Shown one piece after another: positions 3,394 through 59,281 of a DNA stretch of 64,000 nucleotides. The number at the start of each line of letters is the position of its first letter. The stretch's first letter is position 1. The stretch comes from an uncultured Verrucomicrobiota bacterium (GTDB taxonomy: Bacteria; Verrucomicrobiota; Verrucomicrobiia; Limisphaerales; UBA9464), in the NCBI GenBank assembly GCA_964602595.1, contig CAZRRO010000012.1:4314-68313 (forward strand). The letters run 5' to 3'. Under the pieces are notes generated by a model. It saw only the letters and a list, made by a program, of their open reading frames with translations. It had not been told where the DNA came from and made no database searches. The position numbers and the translations under genes were made by a program.

Positions 3394-4110
3394 TTAATCC
3401 TTCTCTTTGGCGGCCGGCTTTTCATCCGGTTCGTCATCAGAATCTTCAGAGTCCGAGCCACTGCCCGTGTCGACGCTGCCCAATGCCCCCAGCCGCCGTT
3501 GGCGGAGCGCGCCTTCCTTTTCCAGTTGGGCTTGGGCTTCGACGGTGAAGCGCGCCCAAGGAATCGCCTCAAGGCGGGCCTTGGGGATCGGCTTGGAGGT
3601 GATCTCGCAAACGCCGTAGGTTCCCTTTTCGATTCGCTTCAAGGCCTCCTCGATCTCGTAAATGGCATCCTGATCGGACGACAGCAGACTAAGGGCGAAG
3701 TCCCGGTCAAAATTGTCGGTCCCGGAATCACCCATGTGGAGACTGTAATTCTCCATCTCGGTCTGGGATTCCTTGGCCAAGCCGCTCATCTGTTCCCGGA
3801 GGCGGGTGTGCAGGTCGAGCAGGTTCTGGTAGAACTTCCGGAGATCCGGTTTGACCTTGTCCACCGGAGTCCAGACCGGGCCGTTGCCCTTGTTGAACTT
3901 GGCGAGTGGCCGGCCGAGGATCGACGAAACACTGGCGGCTCCGACATGGCGCGATTTTCCGGCCGTCGACAGCGGCGCTGTCGGCGCAGAAACCTTGGCC
4001 GCCGTTTTCTTGGCTGCCCCCGAAGTCTTTGAAGACGAAGCTTTGTTGGCGCTCACGATATGTCTGCTGGATTGAACGCAGTGTCTGTTTCGCTCTGGCG
4101 AACCGCCCAC
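3394..4110 (-). CDS. dksA: DksA/TraR-family C4 zinc-finger protein with long low-complexity N-terminal extension (start uncertain; an internal GTG at ~4053 is possible)
   Basis: The C-terminal half has the DksA-like coiled coil plus GTYGVCEITSKPIPKARLEAIPWARF. An acidic Ser/Asp tail follows. Confidence 0.65.
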   Translation of the reverse strand: MGGSPERNRHCVQSSRHIVSANKASSSKTSGAAKKTAAKVSAPTAPLSTAGKSRHVGAASVSSILGRPLAKFNKGNGPVWTPVDKVKPDLRKFYQNLLDLHTRLREQMSGLAKESQTEMENYSLHMGDSGTDNFDRDFALSLLSSDQDAIYEIEEALKRIEKGTYGVCEITSKPIPKARLEAIPWARFTVEAQAQLEKEGALRQRRLGALGSVDTGSGSDSEDSDDEPDEKPAAKEKD

Positions 4111-7405: not shown

Positions 7406-8515
7406 ATGCTCGGCCCACGCATGGGCAACACGTTTGGCCAACTGTTTCGGATCACGACCTGGGGTGAATCTCACGGCGGCGGCATCGGTGTCGTCATCGA
7501 CGGCTGCCCACCGCTGCTCGCCCTGACCGAAGCGGACATCCAGCCGGAACTCGACCGGCGCCGGCCCGGCCAATCCAAGATTGTGACTCCACGCAAGGAG
7601 GCCGACGCCGTGCAGATCCTTTCTGGCACCTTTGAGGGAAAGACGTTGGGCACTCCGATCAGCCTCCTCGTGAAGAATGAGGACCAGCGCTCGGAAGCCT
7701 ACACGGAGATGGCGACGAAGTTCCGGCCCAGCCATGCGGACTACACCTACCAGGCCAAATATGGGCACCGCGCCTGGCCCGGCGGCGGCCGCACCAGTGC
7801 CCGCGAAACCATCGGCCGGGTGGCGGCAGGCGCGATTGCCAAGAAGCTGCTGCGCGAGCGTTGGGGCGTGGAAGTGCTGGCCTGCGTGACCCAGGTGCAA
7901 GGCATCCGCGCCGAGGTGAACCCCGAGGCCTTCACGCTGGGGCAGGTTGAATCCAACATCGTCCGTTGCCCCGACGCAGCCGTGGCGGAACAGATGATTC
8001 AGCTCATCGAACAGCGGCGCACCGAGGGCGACTCCGTCGGGGGCATCGTGCTGGGCGTCGCCCGGAATGTCCCGGTGGGCTGGGGCGACCCCGTGTTTGA
8101 CCGGCTCGAAGCGGACCTCGGCAAGGCGATGCTCTCGCTCCCGGCGACCAAGGCGTTTGAAATTGGGTCCGGCTTCGAGGGCATCCAGCTGACCGGCCGT
8201 CAGCATAACGACGCCATCCGCAACGTGGACGGCCAAGTGCGGACCGTGACCAATCGCAGCGGCGGTGTGGTCGGCGGCATCTCCAACGGCGAGCTGATCT
8301 ATTTCCGCGTCGCTTTCAAGCCCGTGGCCACCGTCATGCACGAGCAGGACACCGTGGACCTAAACTACAGCAACACGACCCTGAAGGGCCGTGGCCGCCA
8401 TGATCCCTGCGTGTTGCCCCGCGCGGTGCCGATGGTCGAGGCGATGACGGCCTTGGTGCTCGTGGACCACGCCATGCGTCATGAGGCGCAGTGCGGGCGA
8501 AACACCGCGGGTTAA
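7406..8515 (+). CDS. aroC: Chorismate synthase
   Basis: [31 protein letters not shown]...GRHDPCV are canonical AroC motifs; 369 aa. Confidence 0.9.
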
Positions 8516-9054
8516 CGGGCTTTGCGCTGGGGCCGCCGGTCTGCGGCGAGTTTGGTGTCCGGACGGGCGACAATGTTGGTGCCGGGGGTCCAAGGTATCT
8601 CCTGGCCGTCCAAGTAGAGCGTGCGTTGAACCATTTCCACCAGGTGCCCGAACGCATCCAACGCGATTGTGCCGGGAAGGAAGGTTACGTCCACAAACTC
8701 CACCGGCCCAAAGGGCAGGGCATTGGTGGACGGCAGCGTGTAGATACGTTGGAGCGGGGCGTTCGTGAACCGTTCCGGGGCGCGTTCGCCGGGAAAGGTG
8801 ATGCTGACCACGTTGCTGAGGCCGATGATCTTGTGGTGCTCAATCCGCAGCACGGGCGTGCCGTCCGGCAGGCGGTCCTGGGTGACCACCCACGGTCCGC
8901 CCTTGCGACGCGCGGCCGCGCAGGCGCCGTAAAACGTCACGTAGAGAAACAACGTGGCGAAGAAAATGCCGACGAACGCCTTCGCGGCTTTGGTTCCATC
9001 TCGGTTCAAGCGAGCCGACAGTAACTGCGGCCCGCCTGGAAGCCAACGTCGCAT
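8512..9054 (-). CDS. Hypothetical membrane-anchored protein (single N-terminal TM, periplasmic globular domain)
   Basis: The minus ORF has a TM segment [19 protein letters not shown] followed by a non-repetitive domain. The competing + ORF 8491..9024 is low-complexity. The start is assigned to MRRWL. Confidence 0.45.
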
Positions 9055-22017: not shown

Positions 22018-22344
22018 TCAGCCGAGGAACGAGCACACGTATTCGCAGATGCCGGCGGTCACCTCGATGTCGAAGCCGGATTTGGCCGGCACGTCGAAGT
22101 GCTGGCCGCCGGCGTAGCAGGCGACGTTGGGTTGCCCGTCGAGCTTCACCACGCAGGCACCGGCGACAATCTCCATGCGCTCCGCCTTGTCGGTGCCGAA
22201 GTGGAACTTGCCCGGATAAATCAGGCCGAGGGTCTTCTTGGAACCGTCGGCAAACAGGATGGAATGGCTGACCACCTTGCCGTCGAAATACACGTTGGCC
22301 TTGGCGACAGCGGTGACGTTCTTGAATTCAGTCGGTGCGGACAT
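22018..22344 (-). CDS. ppnP: Pyrimidine/purine nucleoside phosphorylase PpnP (DUF1255 cupin)
   Basis: NVYFDGKVVSHSI...GKFHFGT...MEIVAGAC are PpnP/YaiE motifs. Start is at MSAPTEF. Confidence 0.7.
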   Translation of the reverse strand: MSAPTEFKNVTAVAKANVYFDGKVVSHSILFADGSKKTLGLIYPGKFHFGTDKAERMEIVAGACVVKLDGQPNVACYAGGQHFDVPAKSGFDIEVTAGICEYVCSFLG

Positions 22345-22451
22345 CGGCCGGAGGTTCCCGGAAGAACCCGCCCGGATGCAAGTGCCGGCGCGACGCGGGA
22401 GCGCGCTCCCGCCTTGCGTGTGGGCCGGCCCCATCCCTAGCGTCCGGGCAC

Positions 22452-23822
22452 ATGAGCACGCTGGTTTTGGCAGGCGGACGGGTCATTGATCCGGCTTCGG
22501 GATTCGATGCGGTGGCGGACGTCGTTCTCCAGGACGGCAAGGTCGCGGCGTTGGGAGCCGGTGCCGGCGTGGCCTTTCCCGGGGCGGAACGTCACGACGT
22601 AACTGGCAAAGTGGTTTGTCCCGGACTGATCGACCTGCACGTCCACCTACGCGAGCCTGGCCAGACCAAGAAGGAGGACATTGTTACCGGCGCGAACTGC
22701 GCGGCCCGAGGCGGGTTCACGACCGTCGTCTGCATGCCGAACACCTCCCCGGCCATCGATAACCCCGGCACTGTGGCGCTCATCCATGATAAGGCTCAGC
22801 AGGCGTGCGTTCGCGTCGAAGTCACCGGTGCGCTGACCAAGGCCATTTCCGGCGAGGAACTGGCCCCCATTGGCTCCCTCGCCAAGGCTGGCATCGTCGC
22901 CCTGACCGATGACGGCAAGTGCATCCAGAATAACGAGCTCATGCGCCGCGCCTGCGAATACGCCCGCATGTTCGGCCTGCCGGTCATGGATCATTGCCAG
23001 GACTACGGCCTCGTGACCGACGGCGTGATGCACGAGGGTCATTACTCGATGCGGCTGGGCCTGCGCGGTTGGCCGGCGGCCGGCGAGGAGATGATTGTCG
23101 CCCGTAACATCCTGCTCGCGGAACAGACCGGGACCCACATCCACTGCCAGCATCTCAGCAGCGCCGGCAGCGTGCGCCTGCTGCGCGAGGCAAAGTCGCG
23201 CGGCGTGCCGGTGTCCGGCGAAGGCTGCCCGCACCACTTCACCCTCACGGACGCCAGCATCGCCGGCAGCGAAGAGTTCTGGAAAGCCGACGGCGCCGAA
23301 CTGGCGAAGCGTTTCTTCGGCGCCCACGCGCTGCCCGCTTGGCCGAGCTACCACACCCACTTCAAGATGAACCCGCCGCTGCGCTCCGCCGCTGACCGGG
23401 CCGCGATCATCGAGGGTTTGGCCGACGGCACGCTGGAGATCATCTCCAGCGACCACGCGCCGCACACGGAATCGGAAAAGGAAGTCGAGTTCGACTACGC
23501 GCCGTTCGGAATCCTTGGGCTTGAGGTGGAATTGGCACTGTCGCTGATGGCGCTGCACCACACCGGCCGGTTGCCGTTGCCGCAGGTGCTGGCAAAGCTC
23601 ACCTGTAATCCGGCCAAACTGCTCCGCTTCACCGATGGCCGCGGTGAGCTCAGAGTCGGCGGAGTGGGCGATGTTACCGTGATCGATCCGGACTGCGAAT
23701 GGACCAGCGACCGGGAACAGACCGCGAGCAAGTCTCGCAACAACCCATTCCACGGTTGGCGAATGAAGGGCAAGGCCGTGCTGACGATTGTCGGCGGCAA
23801 GGTGGTTTACCGCGAAGGCTGA
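22452..23822 (+). CDS. pyrC: Dihydroorotase (amidohydrolase superfamily, large type)
   Basis: GLIDLHVHLREPGQTKKEDIVTGANCAARGGFTTVVCMPNT; SDHAPH. Start is at MSTLVLAGG. Confidence 0.8.
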   Translation: MSTLVLAGGRVIDPASGFDAVADVVLQDGKVAALGAGAGVAFPGAERHDVTGKVVCPGLIDLHVHLREPGQTKKEDIVTGANCAARGGFTTVVCMPNTSPAIDNPGTVALIHDKAQQACVRVEVTGALTKAISGEELAPIGSLAKAGIVALTDDGKCIQNNELMRRACEYARMFGLPVMDHCQDYGLVTDGVMHEGHYSMRLGLRGWPAAGEEMIVARNILLAEQTGTHIHCQHLSSAGSVRLLREAKSRGVPVSGEGCPHHFTLTDASIAGSEEFWKADGAELAKRFFGAHALPAWPSYHTHFKMNPPLRSAADRAAIIEGLADGTLEIISSDHAPHTESEKEVEFDYAPFGILGLEVELALSLMALHHTGRLPLPQVLAKLTCNPAKLLRFTDGRGELRVGGVGDVTVIDPDCEWTSDREQTASKSRNNPFHGWRMKGKAVLTIVGGKVVYREG

Positions 23823-23957
23823 AGTGGTTCTGTGAGCGGGAACGCGCTGAATTGGCGTGTTTCTGCGTCTTGGTGTGGGCTGCATTTGAGGCCCTTCGCC
23901 TCCTAACCTCGGTAGCTACCGGAAATACAATCCTGCAAATGAATGTCCGTTCCGGGT

Positions 23958-26900
23958 TCAAGTCTTCGGCTTCTGCGCCTCCTCCAGCACCTTATGGAAG
24001 CGCTCCACGAAGGTGTGTTCGTTGGCCAGCATCTCTTGGGTGATTTCGACTTCCACCGTTCCTTGCTTTGCCCGGGTCGCGAGCAGCTCTTGGGCGGTCC
24101 GGAGATGATCGCGCTGCTGCGTGGCCAAGTCTTTCAGCGACGCCAGCGTGCTGTGGATCATCTCCATCTCGTGCGAGAGGCTGTCGATCTTGCCCGTGAC
24201 GGCGGAACCCTGCGCGGCGCTGACGGTGCGGCTGAGATCTTCGCCGAGCGCCTTCAATCCTTCTCCCAGTTGTGCGCCGAACTTCTCGATGCCGGCGGTA
24301 GACTCCGGAGCCGGCACCGGAGCGGCGCCGGGCGTTGCGGCCGCGGCGATGACGCGGCCGAGGCGCTCTTCCAACGTCGTGCGCAGCGATTCGAGGCTCT
24401 GGCCGATGGAACCCAGATCCAAGGTAATCGGCGCCTGCGGACGTGACGCGGCGGCGGCGACGGTGGTGCGAAGAGATTCCAAACTCTGCCCCAGCGAACT
24501 CACGTCGAGCACGACAGGGTCCTTTGGCTTGGCGGCGGCGATGGCCAGCGTGGTCTGGATGGATTCGAGGCCCGTCTGGAACAACGAGAGCTGGGCCACG
24601 ACGCGGCCGACGGGGTCGTTCTGGTCGGTGCCGCGGGTGAACTGGTTTCGCTGGAAGGTCTTCTTGATGTCGGCCCAGCGCGCGGCTTCGTCGGGCTTGA
24701 GTTCGCCGATGAGTTCCTTGAAACGGAGCAGATTCGCCTCGGCGCCGGTGGTGAGCGTCTGCGATTCGCCGCGGTAGTGGCCGATGACGAGCGCGCGGAC
24801 CTCGTCGTCGTTCATGATGGCGGCGACCTTTTCCGCGAGGCGGTTCATGTTGCGGTAGGAACCCTGGAGCTTGAACGCGGGCTCGGTGCGGAACTCGTCG
24901 GCCTGGCCGGCGGAGGCGATGTATTCCTCGTTCACCCGCATGACGACGTCGCGGATGGCCACAAGCTTCTTCATGACGGAGAGCACCTCGTCCAACTCCT
25001 GCGCGGAATAGGTTCCCTCCAAGCCTTCGGCCGTGCGCTGGCCGGTCTCGGCCATGCGGACGAACGCGCGGATGTCGGCCTGGCTGCGCACGGCGAGCGG
25101 CGCGAGCACGGCGTTCGAGGTGACGGCGTTCTCGAGGTAACTCGCCTTGAACCACTCGGCGTTGGCACCGATGACGTCGCCCAGGTTGTAGGTGTCGGCG
25201 CGGTTCGCGAGCATGTCGGGAATTTTGAACTTCTGCCCGCTCTCGGTGTAGGGATTGCCCGCCATGACCACGACGACCTTGCGGCCGCGCAGGTCATAGG
25301 TGCGGGGTTGCTTGCGCCAGACACCCTCGATCTTCCGCTGGCCGTCGCAGAGGGAGATGAACTTCTGCAGGAACTCGGGATTGCAGTGCTGGATGTCGTC
25401 GATGCAGATGAGGGCGTTGTCACCCATCTCCAGCGCGAGGTTCAGCTTGGAGATCTCCTCGCGCGCGGCGGCGTTGGGCGCCTCCTCGGGATCGAGCGAC
25501 GTGACGGCGTGGCCGATGGCCGGGCCGTTGATCTTCACGAAGACGATGCCAAGCCGGCTGGCGACGTATTCGAGCAGCGTGGTCTTGCCGTAACCGGGCG
25601 GGGAAATGAGGAGCAACAGGCCCATCAGGTCCGTGCGTTTGGCCGCACCGGCGGCGCCGATCTGCTTGGCGAGGTTGTCGCCGACCATCGGGAGATAGAC
25701 GCGGTCGGTGAGCTGGTTGCGGACGAAGGACGACAGGACGCGCGGCTTGAATTCATCGAGCCGGAGCCGCTTGCGTTCGCGGTCGAGCAACTGGCCCTTG
25801 AGCCGATGGTAAGCCTCGAAGCGCGGCACGGCCTCGGTCTCGAAACGGCGCAGGCGCGCGGTAAAGTCGAGGTAGTCGAAGGTGTAGCGGTTGGCCTCGA
25901 TGCGCGGATGAGCGCCGCGCAGGGCTTCGAGCACGCGGCGGGATTCGGCATGGACCGGCGTGCGCGGCAAGGCATCGCCGCAGAAGAGGATGGCGGTGGT
26001 CTCTTCGAGGTGCGACGTAGCCGCCGACGTGAGGAGGCGGACGTCCGTTGAACTGTTCGACGCTCCTTCCGCCTCGTTACCTCGGCGGCTACCGGACAGC
26101 AGAAATCCCTTCACCCAGTCGCGCACCAGTTCCAGCTCGCTGGAGGGATGCCCGTTCAACGCGGCACGGGCGGCGGCGAAGGTGTCGTCGTGGCCTTTGG
26201 CGACGAGGTGTTGTTGGAAGGCCGTGGCCAACTGATCGGCCTCGCGGGTGACGGTGAACGATTCGCCGTCGCTCAGTTCTTGGAACAGGTATTCGCCGGC
26301 CTCGGCTGCCAGCGTTTCGGGATAGAGCGGCTGGGTCTTCAGGAACTCGCCGATGAGTTTCTGGAGCGCGATGACGTAGTCCTGCTGGACGGGATCACCG
26401 GGGAAGAGCCGGTTGCGTTCGCCGAAGGCCTTGAGCTTGGCGGTCCAGAGCGCGCGGGTTTCGGCGGGGCAGAATCGGCTCCAGTAAACCACGGCGCACG
26501 CCCGGGCTTCGGGACGGAATCGCGCGCGTTGCAGCGCCAGATGTGTCTCCGCCAGCACAGTAAAGATGCGCGCGCCATCGATATCGTGGAGGCCCTTGGT
26601 GTAGCCGTCCTGGTAACGCGCGGCCATGAACTCCTGCACGGCGACAAGGCGCTGCTCTTCGGAGAGGGCGAGAAAGTCTTCGAGTTTGGACGCGCCAAGC
26701 ATCTGCCACGCGAGATACTCGGCGCGGTAAACCTCCGCGTTCTCGGAAATCACTTCCTGGTCCCAGACCTGCCGCGTGGCCAGGTAGTCCGCGTCGGTGA
26801 TCGCGTCGAAATACTTCGTGCTCGTCAGGTGGAAGTGCGGCTGGCCGTCGCGCTGGACGATGGTCAGGTCGAGCGGCTGCGTGTTGACGTTGAACTTGTG

Positions 26901-29498
26901 TTTGCCGAGCTGGATGACGGCCGTGCCGTCGACGAAAAGCTCCTGCTTGTCCTTGAGCTGCCGCACCGCGTCCTGCTGGACGGTCTTGAGCCGGCCTTGC
27001 AGGTCGTCTGCCTTCACGGAATCGCCCAGCGCCAACAACTGGTCGATCGTCTCGCGGACCTTCGCCGTCATCAGATCCGACGCCATGTAGGTGTGGATCT
27101 CCTCCAGCGACTTGAACCCGGCGAGGCGGTTCTGGACGACCTTGAGGATGCGTTCGGCGGCGGTCAGCAGCGCGCCGGCGCGTTTGTTGCGCTGCTCGAC
27201 GAGCGCGATCTTCCGCTGCTCGAAGGCCTCGTAGAACTCGGTGCGGCGGTCGGAAAGCTGGACGGTGTATTCGTCGAACCCGGCGAAGGCGCCCTCCATC
27301 TCCTCCAACTGGACGGTGAGGCGGTTGAGATACTCGTCGCATTTCTCCGGCGTATCGCAGAGGTCCAGGTAGCTGGAAGCGGACTGGCCGAGGAGCTTGA
27401 GCTGCGCGTTGAACTGGGCCGCGCTCTCTGAGGCCACGAGCGCCTGAAGATGCTTCTTCAGCGCGGCCTTGACCTGGTTCAGCGTCGAATAGACCGCCGT
27501 GATGCTGTCGATGATGCGCGTGGTCTCGGTCGCGTCGTCGATCTTCAGGCTGTTGACGATCTCGATGAGCATCTCCAGCTCGCCGCCCGCGTCGGCCACG
27601 GCCTTCTCCAGCTTCCGGCCGTCGGCCACCTTCGCAACCTTGTCCACGGAAGCGAGGTGTTCGGCAGCCTGCTTGCGGTAGGGTTCGAGCGCCTCGGGCT
27701 TCAGCAGGAACTTCACGCACTGCGCGGAAAGCTCGGCGAGCTGGGCGGTCACGGCCTGCTCCAGCGTCTCGATGGCGGCGACGTCGATGTAGCGGACCTC
27801 GCGCGTGGTGATCAGTTCGCCCCGGAGATGGCGGAGCGCGGCGAGGTTATGGACGAAGTCCTCCAGCTTGGAGAACGCCGCCCGGCGCGCTGCCTGGAAG
27901 CGTTCTTCGCAACGTTTCTTCACGTCGGCCAGCTTCAGGACGGCCTCGTGCTGGAGCCGGCGGACCTTGGCGAATTCATCGACCGCCTTGTCCGCGATCT
28001 CGCGGAGCTGCTGGAGCGCGTCGTTGATCTGGAACCCATCCGCGCTGGCGAGCCAAGGATAGGCGTCAAGCATCGCGGTGCAGCGGCGAACGAGGTCGGA
28101 ATACAGCTCGGCGTAGGGCGTCTCCTTGCCGGCGAGGGTCAGCACCTCGTTGCACTCGGCGAGACAACGGACCACGTCCTTGTTGCCGACCTGGTAGAGG
28201 AAGGCGTCCTTCTGCCCGGCCGGTTCGTGGCCGAGCTGGTAGAAGGGCGTCTGGCGAAGCTGGATCTGGTGGTGCTTCTGCGGCACGTCGTCCGCGCGGA
28301 AGAGGATGAGCTGGCCGTTGGGAAACAGCGCGAAGCCATGGCAGGCGATGCGTTCCTCCACCTTCTGCTCGATCAGCCGGTAGGGCATCAGCACGTATTC
28401 GCCCGAGGCGCGGGCATAGAAGACGTAGAGCGAGTCCTCGCCGTTGGGCGAATGGACCACGCGCTCCAGGATCATGCCGGTTTCCTTCGAGTCGAAGCGC
28501 TTCAGCTCGCCGGTGCCGAGATAGTAGCCGTCGGGGAAGATCAGCCCGTGTTCCTCCGGCAAACGCACGCAGGAATCGCCGATGGAATCCACCCGCACGA
28601 CGGAGCGGAGCTTCTCGTTGAAGATGAAGAAGCGGGCGGCGGTTTCCTTGTAGGGCCGGATCTTGAGCAGGATCAGATGGTCCAGCTCGGCGAAGGCGAT
28701 CTCGGCGTCGTCCACCTTCTGGTGGCGGTCGTCCACGGGTTCCGAGTAGATGCCCTCGCCGGTGGCGGTGTTGTCCTCGACCTTGATGGTCAGGTCGCCA
28801 CCGACGCACTCGACGAAGACGCGTTCCGCGATGGAGACGTGCGGATGGTCGCCGTAGCGGTAGGACTCGCGGTCGGGCGTCTGCCAGCGGAAATCGTGCG
28901 TGGCCGGATAACCGACGCGGCGGTATTCCGCCTCCGCGCGGCCGTCCAGGTAACGGAGGTTGCCGTCGTTGAAGGCCCACTTGAAGACGGCGTAGTCGTT
29001 GAGCGACGCGCCGGTGCCGAACTTGGCGTAAAGGTTCGCGCCGATGACGGCGAATTTCCGGAACGCGGTCTTCTCGTAGACGTTGTAGAGGCGCTTGAAG
29101 TCGGTGACGAACTGCTTGTCCTGGAGCGGCTCCAGCGACTCCTCCTTGAACCCGCCCGTGGCCTCGTCGCGCCGGTAGATGGCGAAGACGTCCGCCAGGT
29201 CCATCTCCTTCTTGAGGCCGAAGCGGACGTTGAAGGCGAAGAGGAACCGGCCGTGCCCGAGCTGGACCATGTCGCGCGGGATGCAGTTGTGCGCGGTGGT
29301 GACGCGGTCGGCCTGGAGCAGCTTGGATTCGATGCGCCCGAAGACCTCCTGCCGCCGGGCGTCGAGCTGGCCCATGCGCTCGCGCAACGTCGCCGAGTTC
29401 GCCGCCAACCGCTGCCGGATGATCTCGTAGGTCGCACCGGCGAGGGCGGAGGGGGCGGGAGCGGGCGAGGGTTGGGCTGGTTGATTGGGTTCAGCCAT
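23958..29498 (-). CDS. Giant (1846 aa) multidomain protein with embedded AAA_5 (MoxR/midasin/dynein-like) ATPase core, long coiled coils and C-terminal tandem ~33-aa repeats
   Basis: Single uninterrupted ORF with consistent codon bias. Walker A LLLISPPGYGKTTLLEY lies at nt ~25590. Walker B ALICIDDIQHCNPEFLQKFISLCDGQRKIEG...VVVVMAGNP lies at ~25400; this is the AAA_5 pattern DEIN...LLE...ATxNP. No TM segments. Confidence 0.8.
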   Translation of the reverse strand: MAEPNQPAQPSPAPAPSALAGATYEIIRQRLAANSATLRERMGQLDARRQEVFGRIESKLLQADRVTTAHNCIPRDMVQLGHGRFLFAFNVRFGLKKEMDLADVFAIYRRDEATGGFKEESLEPLQDKQFVTDFKRLYNVYEKTAFRKFAVIGANLYAKFGTGASLNDYAVFKWAFNDGNLRYLDGRAEAEYRRVGYPATHDFRWQTPDRESYRYGDHPHVSIAERVFVECVGGDLTIKVEDNTATGEGIYSEPVDDRHQKVDDAEIAFAELDHLILLKIRPYKETAARFFIFNEKLRSVVRVDSIGDSCVRLPEEHGLIFPDGYYLGTGELKRFDSKETGMILERVVHSPNGEDSLYVFYARASGEYVLMPYRLIEQKVEERIACHGFALFPNGQLILFRADDVPQKHHQIQLRQTPFYQLGHEPAGQKDAFLYQVGNKDVVRCLAECNEVLTLAGKETPYAELYSDLVRRCTAMLDAYPWLASADGFQINDALQQLREIADKAVDEFAKVRRLQHEAVLKLADVKKRCEERFQAARRAAFSKLEDFVHNLAALRHLRGELITTREVRYIDVAAIETLEQAVTAQLAELSAQCVKFLLKPEALEPYRKQAAEHLASVDKVAKVADGRKLEKAVADAGGELEMLIEIVNSLKIDDATETTRIIDSITAVYSTLNQVKAALKKHLQALVASESAAQFNAQLKLLGQSASSYLDLCDTPEKCDEYLNRLTVQLEEMEGAFAGFDEYTVQLSDRRTEFYEAFEQRKIALVEQRNKRAGALLTAAERILKVVQNRLAGFKSLEEIHTYMASDLMTAKVRETIDQLLALGDSVKADDLQGRLKTVQQDAVRQLKDKQELFVDGTAVIQLGKHKFNVNTQPLDLTIVQRDGQPHFHLTSTKYFDAITDADYLATRQVWDQEVISENAEVYRAEYLAWQMLGASKLEDFLALSEEQRLVAVQEFMAARYQDGYTKGLHDIDGARIFTVLAETHLALQRARFRPEARACAVVYWSRFCPAETRALWTAKLKAFGERNRLFPGDPVQQDYVIALQKLIGEFLKTQPLYPETLAAEAGEYLFQELSDGESFTVTREADQLATAFQQHLVAKGHDDTFAAARAALNGHPSSELELVRDWVKGFLLSGSRRGNEAEGASNSSTDVRLLTSAATSHLEETTAILFCGDALPRTPVHAESRRVLEALRGAHPRIEANRYTFDYLDFTARLRRFETEAVPRFEAYHRLKGQLLDRERKRLRLDEFKPRVLSSFVRNQLTDRVYLPMVGDNLAKQIGAAGAAKRTDLMGLLLLISPPGYGKTTLLEYVASRLGIVFVKINGPAIGHAVTSLDPEEAPNAAAREEISKLNLALEMGDNALICIDDIQHCNPEFLQKFISLCDGQRKIEGVWRKQPRTYDLRGRKVVVVMAGNPYTESGQKFKIPDMLANRADTYNLGDVIGANAEWFKASYLENAVTSNAVLAPLAVRSQADIRAFVRMAETGQRTAEGLEGTYSAQELDEVLSVMKKLVAIRDVVMRVNEEYIASAGQADEFRTEPAFKLQGSYRNMNRLAEKVAAIMNDDEVRALVIGHYRGESQTLTTGAEANLLRFKELIGELKPDEAARWADIKKTFQRNQFTRGTDQNDPVGRVVAQLSLFQTGLESIQTTLAIAAAKPKDPVVLDVSSLGQSLESLRTTVAAAASRPQAPITLDLGSIGQSLESLRTTLEERLGRVIAAAATPGAAPVPAPESTAGIEKFGAQLGEGLKALGEDLSRTVSAAQGSAVTGKIDSLSHEMEMIHSTLASLKDLATQQRDHLRTAQELLATRAKQGTVEVEITQEMLANEHTFVERFHKVLEEAQKPKT

Positions 29499-29612
29499 GA
29501 GTCAGCGGGGAAAGACGGGATGCGTGGGGCGGTCGGGCGGCTGGTTTGCCGCCTGAACGGCTGCCAGCTATTGGCCGGGAGTTGAGGCAAGCGGTGCGAA
29601 CGGGATGCGGAA

Positions 29613-29813
29613 GGTGCGGAGCACCGCCAGAAAGTAGCGCACAGCGTAAGCTGTGGGTTTCGTGTGGACCAATTGCGAGCCCCGGAGGGGCGAAAGAAAG
29701 TCTGGGCCAGATCGATTGAGCGACACACTGCCGCCCCTCCGGAGCTGGAACTTTAATGGGGACGCTGACCCACAGCTCACGCTGTGGGCTACTATCTGCC
29801 GCCGCTCCGCGGC
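29613..29813. repeat. Composite palindromic REP/BIME-like element, copy A (~201 bp)
   Basis: Terminal inverted repeats ggtgcggagcaccgcc ... ggcggcggctccgc. Internal hairpins gcacagcgtaagctgtggg and cccacagctcacgctgtggg. Internal stem ccccggaggggcg...cgcccctccgg. It shares >85% of modules with copy B. Confidence 0.6.
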
Positions 29814-29858
29814 TGCCCGAACCCACCAACGTCCGGCTTGATTGGATGAGTTCCATCT

Positions 29859-30311
29859 TCATTCAAACACGTAACGCTCGTCGTATTCGATCTCATGCCT
29901 CTTCAGGAACGAGATCAGCTCTTCCTGAAACGAACCCTTCCGGTGGTGTTCGTCCTGCCCGGCAATGTAGTCCAACACTCCCTGCTTTTGGGAAACGCTC
30001 ACGCTGAACGCCGAATAGCCGAGCTGCCATGCGAACGCCCGTTGCTCTGGGAAGTTCTCATGCACCCATTTGGAGGAATTCGCCTTCAACTTCCCGACGA
30101 AATCGGACGGAGCGGCAGTAGCGGGCAGCGAAGCGAGAATGTGGACATGATCAGCGACGCCGTTGATGAGCAAGGCAACGCCGCCGAGCTCCCGGATGAT
30201 CCCGCCCATGTAGGGAAACACCCGCGCCCGCAGGTCGGGAGTCAGCATCGGCCGACGATCCTTCGAGCTGAACACGATGTGGTTCAGTAGTTGGGTGTAG
30301 GTGCGGGGCAT
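29859..30311 (-). CDS. REP-associated tyrosine transposase (IS200/IS605-family Y1 HuH transposase, RAYT)
   Basis: 150 aa; HuH motif ADHVHILASLP; catalytic Tyr region YIAGQDEHHRK. Flanked on both sides by the REP/BIME copies. Confidence 0.8.
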   Translation of the reverse strand: MPRTYTQLLNHIVFSSKDRRPMLTPDLRARVFPYMGGIIRELGGVALLINGVADHVHILASLPATAAPSDFVGKLKANSSKWVHENFPEQRAFAWQLGYSAFSVSVSQKQGVLDYIAGQDEHHRKGSFQEELISFLKRHEIEYDERYVFE

Positions 30312-30388
30312 GGAGGCAATGATCCTCGGACTAAGCGGATCGGAACGGGAGAAGACGAGCAGCGCGAGAGCCGTGGTTTCATCTCGGA

Positions 30389-30589
30389 GGTGCGGAGCAC
30401 CGGCAGACAGGAGCCCACAGCGTCAGCCGTGGGTTGCGTGGTCAAGCAGGACAAACCCCGGAGGGGCGAAAGAGTGCGAAGGCCATGCTTTGATCGTGTG
30501 ATTCTGCCGCCCCTCCGGGGCTTCGGAACCAGAGGGGACGGGAACCCACAGCTCACGCTGTGGGCTACTTTCTTTCGGCGCTCCGCGCC
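30389..30589. repeat. Composite palindromic REP/BIME-like element, copy B (~201 bp)
   Basis: Same modular structure as copy A: ggtgcggagcaccgg ... cccacagcgtcagccgtggg ... ccccggaggggcgaaaga ... ctgccgcccctccgg ... cccacagctcacgctgtgggctactttct ... cggcgctccgcgcc. Confidence 0.6.
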
Positions 30590-30627
30590 TGAAGAAATTT
30601 TCCGCGGCCTAAAGGGCTTTGCAGGTT

Positions 30628-30888
30628 TCACGGCTGAACTCCCGGAGCAATTCCTTCGTAGCCTTCAGCGATTCGATCCCGTGCGGCCTTGATCAGGACC
30701 GCATAGCTCGGGTCGAACATTGTAGACAGCGATTTGTCCAGCTCTGCTGAAAGATGGCTCACCGCGATGAACTCAGCGTTGTGTCGAAGGATCAGCGTTT
30801 CTTCGTCACCGTCGAAGAACCGAGACATGAACTCATAAAGAACAAGTGCTTCGTCTCGAGTCAGACTGATGGTTACGCAATCGTTCAT
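30628..30888 (-). CDS. Hypothetical 86-aa protein between flotillin and the RAYT insertion
   Basis: ORF with good codon bias, co-oriented with and 35 nt downstream of flotillin. No recognisable motif. Confidence 0.4.
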   Translation of the reverse strand: MNDCVTISLTRDEALVLYEFMSRFFDGDEETLILRHNAEFIAVSHLSAELDKSLSTMFDPSYAVLIKAARDRIAEGYEGIAPGVQP

Positions 30889-30922
30889 GCGATGATTCCG
30901 ATCGGATCGAATCGGGGCAGTC

Positions 30923-33079
30923 TCAGGCTTTCACCACCGTCTCCGCCTTCACCTCACCTAGTCCCTTTTCCTTCACCAGCGCGAGGGCAGACTTGATGGT
31001 GGCCTTTACACCGGCGTCGTCGGTGGAGGCGACGAGTTTGGCGAGCAGGGCGGACAGCGTGAGGTTCTTCAGATCCTCGGTATTGATGCCGAAGTCGGCG
31101 ACCCATTGGCGGAGCTGGGTCTTGAAGTGCTCGGGATCGCCGTTGAAAAAGGTCTCCTTGATGTCGGTGAGCGTGGCGCTGTTCTGCACCATCCGGTCCA
31201 CGGATTTCCCGGTGCCGATGCTGCGGACGATCTTCTCGAAGAAGTCGTTCTCGCCGCCGACGATGTCGATCTTGGCGGTCTTGAGCGCCTCGGAGACGAC
31301 GCTGGCGTTGGCCTGGGCCACGTCGCGCTGGACGTTGATGGCGGCGAGCTCGACGTCGCGTTCCTTCTGGAGGCGGAGCTTGAACTCCTCGTGCTCCTGG
31401 CCGGCGGCGTGGAGCAGCTTCATGGCGTCGGCCTTCAGGTGGATGGACTTCGCCTCCGCGGTGCCGCGGGCCTCGATGCCGGTGGCGATGGCGAGTTCCT
31501 TCTCCTTCGTGCCTTCGGCCTCGGCTTCGGCCTGGGTCTGGGTATTGGACGCCTGGACAGCGCCCTTGGCCTTGATGACGTCGGCTTCGGCCAAACCGAC
31601 TTCCTTGATGGCAGCGGCTTCGGATTTACGGGCGCTGGCCTTGGCCATGGTGACCTTCGCTTCGGCGAGTCCCTTGGCGGCTTCGCGCGCAGCGGTGCCT
31701 TCGGCTTCCTGCTCGGCGGCGTGGCGGCGCTTGTCGGCGACTTTGGCCTCGGCGTCGGCCGTGGTCTGGAGACGTTCGGCATCGCGCAAGGCGGCTTCGC
31801 GGCTGGCCTCGGCGGCGGTGATGGTCTTGATCTTGTCGGCCTCGGCGAGGTTGCGCTCGACCTCCTTCTGGGCCTCGGAGGCGACGACCTTCTCGGTCTG
31901 GTCCTTCTTGGCGTTCATCTCCGCCTCGATGAGCGTGACCTCGCGGACGCGCTCGGCGGTCATGCGGGCTTCGATGTTGCGCTTCTCCTCCTCCTGCTGG
32001 GTGACGGCCTTCTGCTCGGCGACGACGGTGGCGCGCTTGCGTTCCACTTCGACGGCGGCCTCGTTGACCTTCACTTCCTTGTCCATCTCGGCGAGCGAGA
32101 CGGTGCGCTCGCGGCGGACGCGGGCTTCCTCGCCTTCTTGGACGGCTTCCTGTTCTAGGCGCTGCTTCTCCTTCTTCACGGTGAACTCACGCTCCTGCAC
32201 GGCGCGGTTCATGTCCTCGGTGCGGAGGCGGATGGATTCCTCGGCTTCCAGGCGCTTGGCTTCGACTTCTTGACGGCGGGCTTCGATGACCTTGCGGGCC
32301 TCGGCTTCCTCGTTCGCCTTCACCTCGTTGATGGCGCGGGTCTGCTTGGCGGTGTCCTCCTCATTGCGGCGGCGCTGCTCGCGCTTGGCGATGTCGGCGT
32401 CGGCGTTCTCCTTCTCGACCTGCACCTGGGCGCGTTGTGAAAACTCGTTGGCGATGACGCGTTCGCGCTGGGTGATCTCGGTGATCTTCTTGATGCCCTC
32501 GGAATCGAGCACGTTGCTCGGGTCATGCTGGTCGAGCGGGGTCTGCTCGAGGTAGTCGATCGCGACATCTTGGAGGAAAAAGCCGTCCAGGTCCTTGCCG
32601 ATGGTGGCCTGGATCTGCTCGCGGAACTTGATGCGTTCGGTGAAGAGCTCGTGGAACTCCATCTGTTTGCCGGCGGTCTTGAGCGCCTCGGAGAACTTCG
32701 CCTCGAACAGCTCGCGCAGCTGGGCCATGTCGGACACGCGGTCGACACCGAGCATCTGGGAAACCTTCTTCACGCTCTCCTCGGTCGCTTCGACGCGGAT
32801 GTAGAAGGCGACGGAGATGTCGGCACGTATGTTGTCCTTGCAAACGAGGCCGTCCTTGCCCTTGCGGTGGATCTCCAGCTTCTTCACGGAGATGTCCATC
32901 TCCTCGAAGTTCTGCACGACGGGAATGCGCACCATGTAATCGAAGGCGACCCGCAGGCCGCCCCAGCCGACGCTGATGCCGGCCTTGCCGGGATGGATTT
33001 TACGGATGAGCAGGGCTGCGGTGACGAGGCCCACAAGCAGGAGTGCGACGACTCCGGCGATGATGAGGACGTAAAACAT
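30923..33079 (-). CDS. Flotillin-family (SPFH/band-7) protein with long Glu/Ala/Lys-rich coiled coil
   Basis: N-terminal TM MFYVLIIAGVVALLLVGLVTAALL; SPFH domain VPVVQNFEEMDISVKKLEIHRKGKDGLVCKDNIRADISVAFYIRV; ~350-aa EA-repeat coiled coil; C-terminal flotillin tail. Antisense ORFs in this region are low-complexity artefacts. Confidence 0.85.
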   Translation of the reverse strand: MFYVLIIAGVVALLLVGLVTAALLIRKIHPGKAGISVGWGGLRVAFDYMVRIPVVQNFEEMDISVKKLEIHRKGKDGLVCKDNIRADISVAFYIRVEATEESVKKVSQMLGVDRVSDMAQLRELFEAKFSEALKTAGKQMEFHELFTERIKFREQIQATIGKDLDGFFLQDVAIDYLEQTPLDQHDPSNVLDSEGIKKITEITQRERVIANEFSQRAQVQVEKENADADIAKREQRRRNEEDTAKQTRAINEVKANEEAEARKVIEARRQEVEAKRLEAEESIRLRTEDMNRAVQEREFTVKKEKQRLEQEAVQEGEEARVRRERTVSLAEMDKEVKVNEAAVEVERKRATVVAEQKAVTQQEEEKRNIEARMTAERVREVTLIEAEMNAKKDQTEKVVASEAQKEVERNLAEADKIKTITAAEASREAALRDAERLQTTADAEAKVADKRRHAAEQEAEGTAAREAAKGLAEAKVTMAKASARKSEAAAIKEVGLAEADVIKAKGAVQASNTQTQAEAEAEGTKEKELAIATGIEARGTAEAKSIHLKADAMKLLHAAGQEHEEFKLRLQKERDVELAAINVQRDVAQANASVVSEALKTAKIDIVGGENDFFEKIVRSIGTGKSVDRMVQNSATLTDIKETFFNGDPEHFKTQLRQWVADFGINTEDLKNLTLSALLAKLVASTDDAGVKATIKSALALVKEKGLGEVKAETVVKA

Positions 33080-33324: not shown

Positions 33325-35796
33325 GTGAGCGTTTCCCTCCCTTCGCAGACCCGGGTTCTCATCATCGGCGGTGGCGTCGCCGGCACCAGCGTGGCGTGGC
33401 ACCTGACCCAGTTGGGCGTGCGCGACGTCGTGCTCGTCGAGCAGAACAAGCTTGCCGGCGGCACCTCGTGGCACGCCGCCGGAATGGTTGGGCGCCTGCG
33501 AGTTTCGAGCAGCATGATGCGGATCAATCAGGACTCCGCCGACCTCTACGCGAAGCTCAAGGACCTCACCGGCCACGACATCGGCTGGCGCATGGTGGGC
33601 AGTCTGTTGCTCGCCCGTAACCACGACCGTGTGGTCCAGTTTCGGCGCACGACGGGCGTTGCCAGCTATCTAGGCGTCGAATGCCACGAAATCACCCCAG
33701 CCGAGGCGCAGGCCAAGTTCTCCTGCATTCGCGTGGACGACCTGGCCGGCGCCTTCTGGATTCCGCATGACGGTCGGGTGCTGCCCGGCGAAGTGCCGTT
33801 GGCGTTGGCCAAAGGCGCCCGGGCGGGCGGGGCACAGGTCGTCGAAGGTGTCCGCGTGACCAAGCTGCTGTCGAACAATGGCCGCGTCACCGGTGCCGAG
33901 ATCAACCTCGGAACCATTCACGCCGAAGTGGTCGTGCTGACGGGCGGCATGTGGACCCGCCAGCTGGCGTTGACCGCAGGCGTGAATATCCCGCTGCATC
34001 CGGTCGAGCATCACTACGTCGTCAGCAATCCGCTCCCGGGCGCCGACGGCAATTGTCCCTGCACGCGCGACATGGACGGCTCGACGTATTTCCGCGGCGA
34101 GGATTTGCCCGAAGGCGGCGGTGGCGTGCTGTTGGGTGCATTCCAGCGCACGACGAAGATCTGGGACGTGGCCCGCGTGCCGGACGATTTCTCTTTTGGC
34201 CTGCTAGAACCGGATTGGGAGAAGTTCAGCGAGCCGCTCGCGCAGGGGTTGCTCCGCATTCCTGGACTGAAGGAAGCCGGTTTCTCGAAATTCGTGAACG
34301 GCCCGGAGAGCTTCACGCCGGACAACAACTTCCTGCTGGGTGAAACCGCGGAACTGCGCGGGCTGTTCGTCGCCGCGGGCTTCAACAGCGCCGGCATCGC
34401 CTGCGCGGGCGGGGCAGGGAAGGCGCTTGCCGAATGGATTCTAGGCGGTGCGATGCCCTACGACCTTACCGGCGTGGACATCCGGCGCTTTGGCGGCTGG
34501 GCCAACAACCGGGCCTTCCTGCGCGACCGCGTGACGGAATCGCTCGGCCTCCACTATGAAATGGCCTGGCCCAATCGCGAGCCCGTGACCGCCCGGAATG
34601 TGCGCCTGAGCCCACTGCACGAACGACTCAAGGCGGCTGGCGCCTGCTTTGGCACCAAGGGTGGATGGGAACGGCCGAACTGGTTTGCGCGGAGTGACTC
34701 CGGCTTCGCCGCTGTGCCGGAAGCCGCCTACAGCTTCGGTCGCCAGAACTGGTTCGCGAATCACGCTTTCGAGCACCGCGCCTGCCGCGAGCGTGTGGCC
34801 GTGTTTGACCAGACGGGCTTCGCCAAGCTGCTCGTGCGCGGAACCGATGCGTGCGCAGTGCTCCAACGGGTTTGCGGCAACAACGTGGATGTTGCGCCCG
34901 GCAAGGTCGTTTACACGGGCCTCTTCACCGAGCGGGGTGGTTTCGAGAGCGACCTGACCGTGGTGCGCGTGAGCCGCGACGAATTTTACCTGATCACCGG
35001 CAGCGCGCAGGCCGCCCGCGACGCGAGCTGGCTGCGCTGGAACCTGAAACCCGGCGAGTGCTGCGAAGTGGTTGATGTGACTGTTGCTTACGCCGTGCTG
35101 GGCGTGATGGGCCCGCGTTCCCGCGAACTGCTTTCCCGGATTGCCGATGCGGATTTGGGCAATGCCGCCTTCCCGTTTGGGACGGCGCAAGTGATCGGCA
35201 TCGGCATGGCCAACGCCCGCGCAGTCCGCCTTACCTACGTGGGCGAACTGGGCTGGGAACTGCACGTTCCCGTGGAGCAGGCCGGCCACGTTTACGATTT
35301 GCTGATGACGACCGGCGCGGACCTCGGGGTCGCGAATGCCGGTCATTATGCGATCAATTCGCTGCGCCTGGAGAAGGGCTACCGGGCCTTCGGTGCGGAG
35401 TTGTCGCCGGACGAAACGCCGTTCGAAGCCGGGCTCGCCTTCGCGGTGGACTTAACGAAGGACTTCTGCGGCCGCGCCGCGATGCTGGCCGCCAAAGAGC
35501 GTCCACGGAAGAAACTGCTGACAACCTTCGTGCTGAACGATCCCGAACCACCCGTGTGGGGCGGCGAGGTCATCTTCCGCAATGGCATTGGCGTGGGCTA
35601 CACGACCAGCGGCAGCTATGGCCACACCGCGGGCGGCGCCATCGCTATGGGCTACGTGAAGAACGGCGGCGAACCCGTCACGCCGGAATGGATCTTGGCC
35701 GGTCGCTACGAACTGCTCGTGGACGGCCGCCGGATCTCGGCTACGCCGCACCTGAAGCCGGTTTACGATCCGAAGCGGGAACGGATTTTGGGCTAG
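33325..35796 (+). CDS. FAD-dependent oxidoreductase fused to GcvT-like aminomethyltransferase domain (dimethylglycine/sarcosine dehydrogenase family)
   Basis: VLIIGGGVAGTSVAWHL dinucleotide fold; C-terminal folate-binding GcvT-like domain (GYTTSGSYGHTAGGAIAMGYV); 823 aa. Confidence 0.8.
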   Translation: MSVSLPSQTRVLIIGGGVAGTSVAWHLTQLGVRDVVLVEQNKLAGGTSWHAAGMVGRLRVSSSMMRINQDSADLYAKLKDLTGHDIGWRMVGSLLLARNHDRVVQFRRTTGVASYLGVECHEITPAEAQAKFSCIRVDDLAGAFWIPHDGRVLPGEVPLALAKGARAGGAQVVEGVRVTKLLSNNGRVTGAEINLGTIHAEVVVLTGGMWTRQLALTAGVNIPLHPVEHHYVVSNPLPGADGNCPCTRDMDGSTYFRGEDLPEGGGGVLLGAFQRTTKIWDVARVPDDFSFGLLEPDWEKFSEPLAQGLLRIPGLKEAGFSKFVNGPESFTPDNNFLLGETAELRGLFVAAGFNSAGIACAGGAGKALAEWILGGAMPYDLTGVDIRRFGGWANNRAFLRDRVTESLGLHYEMAWPNREPVTARNVRLSPLHERLKAAGACFGTKGGWERPNWFARSDSGFAAVPEAAYSFGRQNWFANHAFEHRACRERVAVFDQTGFAKLLVRGTDACAVLQRVCGNNVDVAPGKVVYTGLFTERGGFESDLTVVRVSRDEFYLITGSAQAARDASWLRWNLKPGECCEVVDVTVAYAVLGVMGPRSRELLSRIADADLGNAAFPFGTAQVIGIGMANARAVRLTYVGELGWELHVPVEQAGHVYDLLMTTGADLGVANAGHYAINSLRLEKGYRAFGAELSPDETPFEAGLAFAVDLTKDFCGRAAMLAAKERPRKKLLTTFVLNDPEPPVWGGEVIFRNGIGVGYTTSGSYGHTAGGAIAMGYVKNGGEPVTPEWILAGRYELLVDGRRISATPHLKPVYDPKRERILG

Positions 35797-58833: not shown

Positions 58834-58880
58834 GTGTTCGTCGCGGAAAAAGCTGACACGCTGGTGAGCAGATTCGACGA

Positions 58881-59075
58881 GCCGCGGAGCGGCGCCAGAC
58901 GGTAGCCCACAGCGTAAGCTGTGGGTGGTCGAAGAAAGGCGACCAAGCCCCGGAGGGGCGAAAGAAGTTCCAGATGCCTGTCCACCCCGATCTGTCGCCC
59001 TGCTGGGGCTCCGTTGGTAAGGCTTTGAATCCCCGGGCTGACGCCCGGGGCTACTTTCTGCCGCCCCTCCGGCGC
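58881..59075. repeat. REP/BIME-like element, copy C (rearranged variant) immediately downstream of uvrA
   Basis: It shares the modules gccgcggagcggcgcc, gtagcccacagcgtaagctgtggg, ccccggaggggcgaaaga, gctactttctgccgcccctccgg. The second hairpin is replaced by ccccgggctgacgcccgggg. Confidence 0.55.
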
Positions 59076-59281
59076 TAACTGCCCAATCCGGTGGGGTTCA
59101 TCCGGTAGGTGCCGATGTGAGGAGCCCTGATTTTGTGCGGCAAAGTGATCCTCGTTACCTCGTCTCCTACGGGAACGGATTTCCTGGCTGTTCGGCCAAG
59201 CGGAGTTTCCACGGAGGTTGCCAACCCAAGGTCGCCTCGGTGGGGACGAGACCCGAACGATCAAGCGCGCCTCTTCCGCGG

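Follow-up and report, generated by a model that had tools for sequence, protein, structure and literature searches.

A probable long-resident REPIN-RAYT cassette between a flotillin-like gene and a giant AAA+ ATPase gene of Verrucomicrobiota

Introduction

Did a transposase gene that is found today between two co-oriented genes break up their operon recently, or is it an old resident of the space between them? This question is raised by a locus of an uncultured Verrucomicrobiota bacterium (Limisphaerales, UBA9464; assembly GCA_964602595.1, contig CAZRRO010000012.1), of which a stretch of 64,000 nucleotides (positions 4,314 to 68,313), denoted here as the window, was analyzed. Four co-directional open reading frames (ORFs) on the minus strand make up the locus: a gene for a flotillin-like protein (flot; 30923-33079, 718 aa), orf86 (30628-30888, 86 aa), a Y1 transposase gene (29859-30311, 150 aa), and the gene of a giant ATPase (23958-29498, 1846 aa). 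The gap between orf86 and the ATPase gene measures 1129 bp and contains the transposase gene with one repeat element on either side. These elements consist of repetitive extragenic palindromic (REP) sequences arranged as inverted doublets, called REPINs (REP doublets forming hairpins), and the transposase is treated here as a tyrosine transposase associated with REPs (RAYT).

A preliminary description of this DNA had put flot, orf86, and the ATPase gene on one strand at the above coordinates and a repeat-RAYT-repeat cassette of about 1 kb between orf86 and the ATPase gene, both of which are confirmed. It had further supposed that the cassette splits an ancestral operon. The cassette does lie inside a conserved gene pair, but its orthologs in the same slot and their substitution rates mark it as an old, selected resident and not as a recent disruption. 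The probable explanation is that the cassette represents a REPtron, i.e. a domesticated, non-jumping IS200-like RAYT between two direct cognate REPINs of ~205 nt, which has long resided at this position.

The transposase and its cognate REPINs

The transposase belongs to the Y1 family (PF01797, E=3e-22). Its HUH motif reads H55-V-H57 and the catalytic Y115 is located in Y-I-A-G-Q119; H55, H57, Y115, and Q119 are invariant among 17 homologs. The nearest structures in the PDB are TnpA proteins of the IS200/IS605 group, and the NCBIfam equivalog model for IS200 (NF033573) is passed with 61.2 bits at a cut-off of 55. By sequence, the protein is thus IS200-like, while by genomic behavior it is a RAYT, because cognate REPINs flank it and also occur alone, its position is fixed, and purifying selection on it is strong. 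The window contains a single RAYT copy, with no near-identical copies at other sites there. Since the orthologs are, in a limited sample, fixed in one slot at synonymous divergences (dS) of 0.56-2.3, the cassette is not an active IS200 element.

Two REPINs frame the gene as direct repeats, 776 bp apart, 86-87% identical and ~205-223 nt long, each composed of an inverted pair of ~48-57-nt arms. Copy B (29602-29824) occupies the gap between RAYT and ATPase gene, with inverted REP units at 29612-29659 and 29769-29814 and arms of 57 nt (29602-29658/29768-29824) that are 79% complementary. Copy A (30388-30590) lies on the upstream side of the RAYT gene, with GTAG-tagged, likewise inverted units at 30388-30433 and 30545-30590, arms at 30388-30435/30543-30590, and an inner palindrome, CCCCGGAGGGGCG...CGCCCCTCCGGGG, between the units. 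The preliminary description had recognized these two copies; a third one, copy C (58880-59076, units 58880-58925 and 59031-59076), is dispersed, has no transposase, and is situated just past the stop codon of a 989-aa ORF. All three are intergenic. The reported distance of 115 bp between ATPase start and palindrome also proved close to the mark, the ATPase start codon being 103-113 nt away from the nearest repeat arm.

A REP unit is made up of GTAG-CCCACAGC-GTGA-GCTGTGGG, and five instances of its core palindrome (CCCACAGC-N4-GCTGTGGG) are present in the window, compared to 0.05 expected by chance. On folding, each element forms one long hairpin (z=-8.2 as DNA for copy B, z=-10.2 as RNA for copy A, the RNA fold of the latter reaching -128 kcal/mol). 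When seven REPINs (from the window and the loci L003 and L005) are aligned, both the outer and the inner hairpins are conserved, with compensatory changes that preserve the stems, namely CCCACAGC/GCTGTGGG to CCCCGGGC/GCCCGGGG and GGTGC/GCACC to GCGCC/GGCGC.

The palindromic elements flanking the RAYT had loosely been termed bacterial interspersed mosaic elements (BIMEs). A BIME is a mosaic of the Y and Z REP types of Escherichia coli with defined linker motifs. By this description, the E. coli term is set apart from the arrangement found here, two inverted REPs with an inner palindrome, which fits the REPIN, defined as REPs occurring as an inverted doublet (PMC3116915, PMC3337134). The tetranucleotide GTAG beside a palindrome is the hallmark of the GTAG-class REPs, which have been described together with REPtrons (PMC3733652).

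The REP units coincide with the Rfam family Acido-Lenti-1 (RF01687), whose model comprises 46 nt with two hairpins and has a gathering score of 37 bits. Five units of the window match the full 46-nt model above this score (44.6-52.3 bits), i.e. both units of copy A (44.6 and 50.7 bits), both of copy C (48.8 and 48.2 bits), and the right unit of copy B (29769-29814, 52.3 bits), whose left unit remains below it. RF01687 is found at most ~100 nt from the transposase gene, in conserved orientation, in 8/8 scanned loci that carry the RAYT in the flot-ATPase slot. Of nine non-redundant metagenome contigs that are unrelated and carry more distant relatives of the transposase, seven (L098, L101, L103, L107, L118, L121, and L128) likewise have the motif beside the gene, ~16-100 nt from its ends. 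Since the motif accompanies related transposases in these contigs too, RF01687 is most likely the REP of this Y1-transposase clade rather than a small RNA (sRNA) gene. The original description of the motif mentions no more than an occasional location near group II introns (PMC2864571, supplement).

REPINs of this family occur elsewhere around the locus as well. An orthologous REPIN follows directly after the ATPase stop codon in L003 (13493-13695) and L005 (7062-7264), and none is present there in the window; L005 hence holds the REPIN family though its locus has no RAYT. In L001, the place of the REPtron is taken by another palindrome (7730-7930; GGCACCCTGAAGGGGTGCC...GGCACCCCTTCAGGGTGC, flanked by GCCGGGGGTTGAG.../...CTCAACTCCCGGC) without RF01687 match, which may belong to a different family of miniature inverted-repeat transposable elements or REPs.

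The flotillin-like/ATPase gene pair

The two genes that enclose the cassette are associated far beyond this organism. Among 80 ATPase loci retrieved by scanning a genome collection with an ATPase alignment, flot, sought upstream by tblastn, is found directly upstream of the ATPase gene and on the same strand in 73, with hosts in the Verrucomicrobiota, Planctomycetota, Bacteroidota, and Calditrichia. The seven loci without flot mostly have too little upstream sequence, and two of them (L048 and L065) lack it despite 10 kb. The spacer between the two genes has a median of 135 bp, is at most 250 bp in 51 loci, and shrinks to 1-8 bp in several. Flot and the ATPase gene are an ancestral co-directional pair; in most lineages their spacing is tight enough for an operon, whose co-transcription is predicted.

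The adjacency of both genes in relatives, on which the preliminary description had relied, is thus confirmed, while its compact ancestral unit of three genes is reduced to two, as orf86 is restricted to the window, L005, and a 2-kb contig (L172). A RAYT-free relative in which orf86 abuts the ATPase start, as had been envisaged, does exist: in L005, the order is flot-orf86-72 bp-ATPase without transposase, and the ATPase is 91% identical to that of the window.

Both proteins are poorly characterized. The ATPase matches DUF3686 (PF12458, 550 bits), DUF7902, and AAA+ in Pfam and has 3529 homologs; a literature search for DUF3686, PF12458, and DUF7902 retrieved nothing. In L089 (10032-15065), the ATPase ortholog is broken into four ORFs (418, 147, 518, and 487 aa) next to an intact RAYT gene, due either to frameshift errors of long reads or to gene decay. 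In the flot product, an N-terminal transmembrane helix is combined with a beta-rich domain and with a coiled coil that is rich in E and A and very long. Its homologs are labeled 'flotillin family protein', 'flotillin', or 'YqiK' by the NCBI and JGI pipelines, and no SPFH/Band_7 or flotillin domain was matched in Pfam or NCBIfam, even at E<=10. A profile search against the PDB gave only a marginal match to QmcA (E=0.08), located in the coiled coil, and the AlphaFold2 model (pLDDT 54, pTM 0.20) was too poor for a fold search. The flotillin label stems from the source pipelines, and the protein is referred to as flotillin-like.

Age and inheritance of the cassette

RAYT loci were collected by look-ups of close homologs on long contigs, all of which led to the slot between flot and ATPase gene, and by an unbiased metagenome scan with a RAYT alignment. 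At least nine lineages other than that of the window have an ortholog (65-89% identity) in this slot and on the same strand: L003 (89%), P0126/L085-88 (85%), P0132/L089 (81%), L026 (71%), and P0168/L090-91 (70%), with L094, L095/96, and L114 added by the metagenome scan. Two short contigs display one flank each, the ATPase gene only in L092 and flot only in L093. RAYT relatives that are more distant (<=70% identity) reside in other genomic contexts. The outer neighbors differ among the genomes with an occupied slot (e.g. DMGDH, PQQ, GFO_IDH, and CotH), so it is the flot-RAYT-ATPase trio that persists.

The transposase gene has diverged together with its flanks. Pairwise RAYT identity correlates with that of flot (r=0.76) and of the ATPase (r=0.68), and for the same genome pairs dS amounts to 0.56-1.77 for the RAYT gene, 0.34-1.40 for flot, and 0.30-0.78 for the ATPase gene. 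The ratio of non-synonymous to synonymous substitution rates (dN/dS) of the RAYT gene is 0.03-0.14 at dS 0.56-2.3, indicating purifying selection, and its GC content at third codon positions (GC3) follows the GC content of the host.

In full-length host trees, the RAYT loci form two sister clades, within which loci without RAYT are nested, and outgroup lineages have compact spacers free of REP. Some RAYT-less spacers still contain the repeats: that of L006 (8962-10001, 1038 bp) has ten RF01687 matches forming ~5 tandem REPINs and a spurious 347-aa ORF, L016 has one solo REPIN (3521-3711), and L012 a single REP (8845-8890). The nearest relatives of the window (L001/2, L004, and L005) have no RAYT. 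The gene is present in L003, which is as close as L001 and L005 (ATPase dS 0.30), and in the more distant L085 (dS 0.78), so that parsimony favors a secondary loss in L005 over a site that was never occupied. A match between the L005 spacer and the outer REP stem seen by eye (GGCGCCGAGCACC) was discarded, its local alignment score of 18 being equal to the mean of shuffled sequences.

Distribution, co-divergence, and selection point to the following probable course of events. The transposase would have entered the spacer in the ancestor of a broad verrucomicrobial clade and would then have been inherited vertically in place; it would have been lost repeatedly, at times leaving solo or tandem REPINs behind, while the part of the spacer upstream of it probably gathered unrelated co-oriented cargo, in the window orf86. 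By analogy to RAYT and IS200/IS605 biochemistry (PMC5581495; bioRxiv 10.1101/2021.07.10.451892; PMC3479197), the protein is supposed to bind REP hairpins in single-stranded DNA, to cleave beside the GTAG tag, and to copy REPINs to new intergenic sites (e.g. 58880-59076), with its own gene remaining immobile. Known RAYTs are single-copy genes that keep the same extragenic space and are inherited vertically (PMC5581495; bioRxiv 10.1101/2021.07.10.451892).

orf86 and other cargo of the spacer

The ORF next to flot in the window is a genuine gene, yet it is compositionally foreign cargo outside the ancestral pair. Its counterpart in L005 (1219-1479) is 80% identical at the amino acid level with dN/dS 0.19, and third codon positions hold 26 of the 44 differences; its GC3 is 0.56 compared to 0.88 for flot and the ATPase gene. 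Selection, low GC3, and the occurrence in few loci together led to this assignment. Neither Pfam nor NCBIfam contains a family for orf86, and PADLOC gave one weak match (E=0.007).

Unrelated genes are found in this place in other close relatives: a 78-aa Zn-ribbon-like ORF (L001:7401-7637), an ORF type of 186-189 aa common to L004 (7368-7928) and L003 (53% identity), ORFs of 164 aa (L085:8137-8631) and 252 aa (L026:8207-8965), an R2K ATP-grasp protein (L029:9098-9901), and an AF2212/PIN toxin-antitoxin pair (L073:4748-5358, also L003). All spacer cargo ORFs share the orientation of flot and ATPase gene and most are family-less; the spacer is a hypervariable hot spot for cargo. PADLOC found no known defense system among flot and all cargo ORFs, and for the ATPase and orf86 only weak matches at chance level (E=0.0006-0.007).

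L003 (5526-6878) preserves traces of one such acquisition. There, a duplicate of the C-terminus of flot survives as a 51-aa remnant (65% identity over 40 aa to flot of L004) behind the AF2212-like and PIN genes, and next comes the 189-aa ORF, whose L004 homolog stands directly after flot. Therefore, the toxin-antitoxin module was inserted at the 3' end of flot in an L004-like arrangement.

Weighing of the explanations

Several observations speak against the REPtron as outlined above. With 16.7 bits at a cut-off of 80, the protein falls short of the curated RAYT model NF047646, which is proteobacterial, and, as mentioned, it passes the IS200 model. Copy counts of RAYT and REPINs refer to the 64-kb window. 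The 72-nt spacer of L005 has no detectable REP footprint and cannot, on its own, separate loss from a site that was never occupied. In a neighbor-joining (NJ) tree, the clade of all slot RAYTs reaches a bootstrap value of only 24%, with 100% and 64% for its two subgroups. The host trees of flot and ATPase disagree for L090: flot and RAYT of L090/L091 group with the clade of L026/L095/L114, the ATPase with the clade of the window, which points to some recombination at the locus, with a breakpoint probably inside the REPtron or close to it. Finally, the read-through model presented below is drawn from co-orientation, the terminator scan, and leader conservation.

The low bootstrap value bears on the alternative that survives best, though it is still improbable: the spacer would be a recurrent integration site which RAYT cassettes (at least those of the subgroups g1 and g2) and REPINs entered independently at least twice. 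This fits the unrelated cargo that the spacer gathers (orf86 and the Zn-ribbon, 186-189-aa, AF2212/PIN, R2K ATP-grasp, 164-aa, and 252-aa ORFs), the REPINs standing alone in the slots of L006 and L016, and the fact that RAYTs outside the slot are as close to g1 (65-70%) as g2 is. However, no movement of RAYT genes is known (PMC5581495), the split between g1 and g2 mirrors the clade split of flot, and all slot loci share orientation and ATPase-side position; residence would be ancient within each subgroup in any case. A single slot-RAYT clade, as drawn by the BLOSUM-based NJ tree, was rejected as a claim, and because of the bootstrap value a single acquisition is not asserted. Between one ancient acquisition and two entries into a hot spot, the former is favored as the best reading.

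Doubtful, and a degree less probable than recurrent integration, is the more far-reaching idea that the spacer acts as a dedicated and long-lived 'landing pad', where resident RAYT and REPINs promote capture and turnover of small accessory genes expressed by read-through from the promoter of flot and the RAYT is kept for the benefit of the flotillin-like/AAA+ system. If it were true, the RAYT would contribute to the function or diversification of an uncharacterized, possibly conflict- or repair-related, system, the captured genes would include toxin-antitoxin pairs, the R2K ATP-grasp protein, and orphan ORFs, and Acido-Lenti-1 would need to be reclassified as the REP of this system.

There is very little probability left for a recent insertion, as implied by the preliminary description, in which a compact flot-orf86-ATPase operon of this lineage would only lately have been interrupted by a mobile REP-RAYT or IS200-type element. 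The cassette-free order of L005, the absence of the RAYT from the nearest relatives (L001/2, L004, and L005), and the IS200 score of the transposase speak for such an event. They are outweighed by orthologs in identical slot and orientation in the other lineages, by dS values of the RAYT gene comparable to those of the flanking genes along with low dN/dS, by the carriers L003 and L085, which place the gene in the common ancestor by parsimony, and by orf86 being foreign cargo itself. This reading is largely refuted, and the syntenic RAYTs are not near-identical in DNA.

Equally slight are the chances of a functional module in which the Y1 nuclease was recruited as third part of a flotillin-like/'DNA repair ATPase' system. 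Long-term linkage, co-orientation, strong purifying selection, and the cohesion of the trio amid changing outer neighbors speak for it. But in most lineages and phyla the pair has no RAYT at all, L001, L004, and L005 lost the RAYT and kept flot and ATPase gene intact, unrelated surroundings also harbor related RAYTs with the same REPs, and no link was found in PADLOC or in the literature. As the pair is widespread without it, there is no sign of the RAYT as a working part of flot and ATPase.

Least probable of all is that the units are trans-acting sRNA genes of the Acido-Lenti-1 class that are close to the transposase incidentally, for despite five matches above the gathering score, covariation preserving both hairpins, and the rating of the motif as a probable RNA by Weinberg et al. 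(PMC2864571), they occur as GTAG-tagged inverted doublets on both strands and in tandem arrays (L006), and in 15/17 loci they surround a Y1 transposase with distance and orientation fixed, an arrangement typical of REPs and REPINs (PMC3733652, PMC3116915) and not of an sRNA gene.

Transcription of the locus and neighboring genes

A scan of the region for terminators on the gene strand (hairpin followed by a T-run) found none. The REP hairpins resemble terminators on the plus (antisense) strand only, with T-rich tails at 29640-29655 and 30545-30566, and could thus stop antisense transcription but leave the passage of sense transcripts free. A search for sigma-70-like promoters detected none on either strand, although such a scan has no informative value in this phylum.

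Upstream of the ATPase start lies a leader of ~100 nt (29499-29601, minus strand), which is conserved, by alignment, in L001 (7900-8000) and L085 (9662-9774) and absent from L003 and L005. Its motif GCCTCAACTCCCGGC is confined to the window, L001/L002, and L172, and an interpretation of the leader as second repeat family was dismissed, as neither the window nor other loci show repeats of the motif. The leader could be a candidate 5' untranslated region or internal promoter.

These features make it probable that transcription from the flot promoter still runs through flot, orf86, the RAYT gene, and the ATPase gene. The REPIN hairpins may then serve as mRNA-stability or attenuation/polarity elements that alter the ratio of flot to ATPase but would not fully uncouple the two genes, and a secondary promoter might reside in the leader. 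The preliminary description had considered a decoupling of the ATPase gene from flot.

The locus is bordered on the side of flot by a divergent DMGDH-like gene (33325-35796, plus strand) and on the side of the ATPase gene by a convergent amidohydrolase/dihydroorotase-like gene (22335-23822, plus strand). An ORF of 412 aa on the minus strand (22647-23885) was rejected as a gene, since it is a family-less shadow ORF overlapping the amidohydrolase gene.

Relation to known systems

The REPtron is a known type of element. Closest to the cassette are the REPIN-RAYT systems of Proteobacteria (RayT/TnpA-REP of E. coli with its BIMEs, Group 2 and 3 RAYTs of Pseudomonas), which share a Y1/HUH gene between cognate GTAG-tagged inverted REP doublets, further REPINs at intergenic sites, constant extragenic position, purifying selection, vertical co-divergence, and the persistence or decay of REPINs after loss of the RAYT. 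In contrast to them, the system described here belongs to Verrucomicrobiota, its IS200-like protein fails NF047646, its REPIN is ~205 nt long with a second inner palindrome compared to typically ~100 nt, and it is placed inside a conserved two-gene operon, a position held down to ~65% protein identity.

With IS200/IS605 elements (TnpA of IS608 and ISDra2), the transposase shares the fold, the HUH and tyrosine motifs, and the best PDB and NCBIfam matches, and a hairpin-recognizing single-strand transposition chemistry would be expected by analogy. Unlike these elements, it was not seen in multiple identical copies or variable positions and is not accompanied by tnpB; symmetric REPIN doublets, which also stand alone, flank it, and the gene behaves as a resident host gene. 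The Rfam class RF01687 is listed as an sRNA of Acidobacteria and Lentisphaerae, whereas it appears here as a DNA repeat of Verrucomicrobiota tied to a Y1 transposase. TIRtrons with their TIRYTs and the GTAG REPs surveyed by Di Nocera et al. (2013; Acidobacteria, Opitutus terrae) are alike by description, with a GTAG tag, acidobacterial and PVC (Planctomycetes-Verrucomicrobia-Chlamydiae) hosts, and tyrosine-transposase genes bearing inverted repeats, of which dispersed families exist as well; that survey does not include this family, the link to RF01687, or the anchoring between flot and ATPase gene. New are the phylum, the IS200-like type, and the long REPIN with inner palindrome, as are the place within a conserved operon, retained across deep divergence, and a REP that equals an Rfam 'sRNA' family.

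Implications

These findings on the cassette do not overturn current understanding. They extend REPIN-RAYT biology, worked out nearly entirely in Proteobacteria, to the Verrucomicrobiota and demonstrate positional persistence to ~65% protein identity within an operon, i.e. beyond the gaps between unrelated genes. They also give reason to re-annotate RF01687 as a REP/REPIN DNA element, which would remove likely false 'sRNA' calls. The same operon is available in graded states (compact, with solo REPIN, with tandem REPINs, with RAYT, and with RAYT plus cargo), a series that may be used for measuring the effects of REPINs on polarity and mRNA stability. Furthermore, the flotillin-like/DUF3686 AAA+ pair is flagged as a widespread, unstudied gene pair of four phyla.

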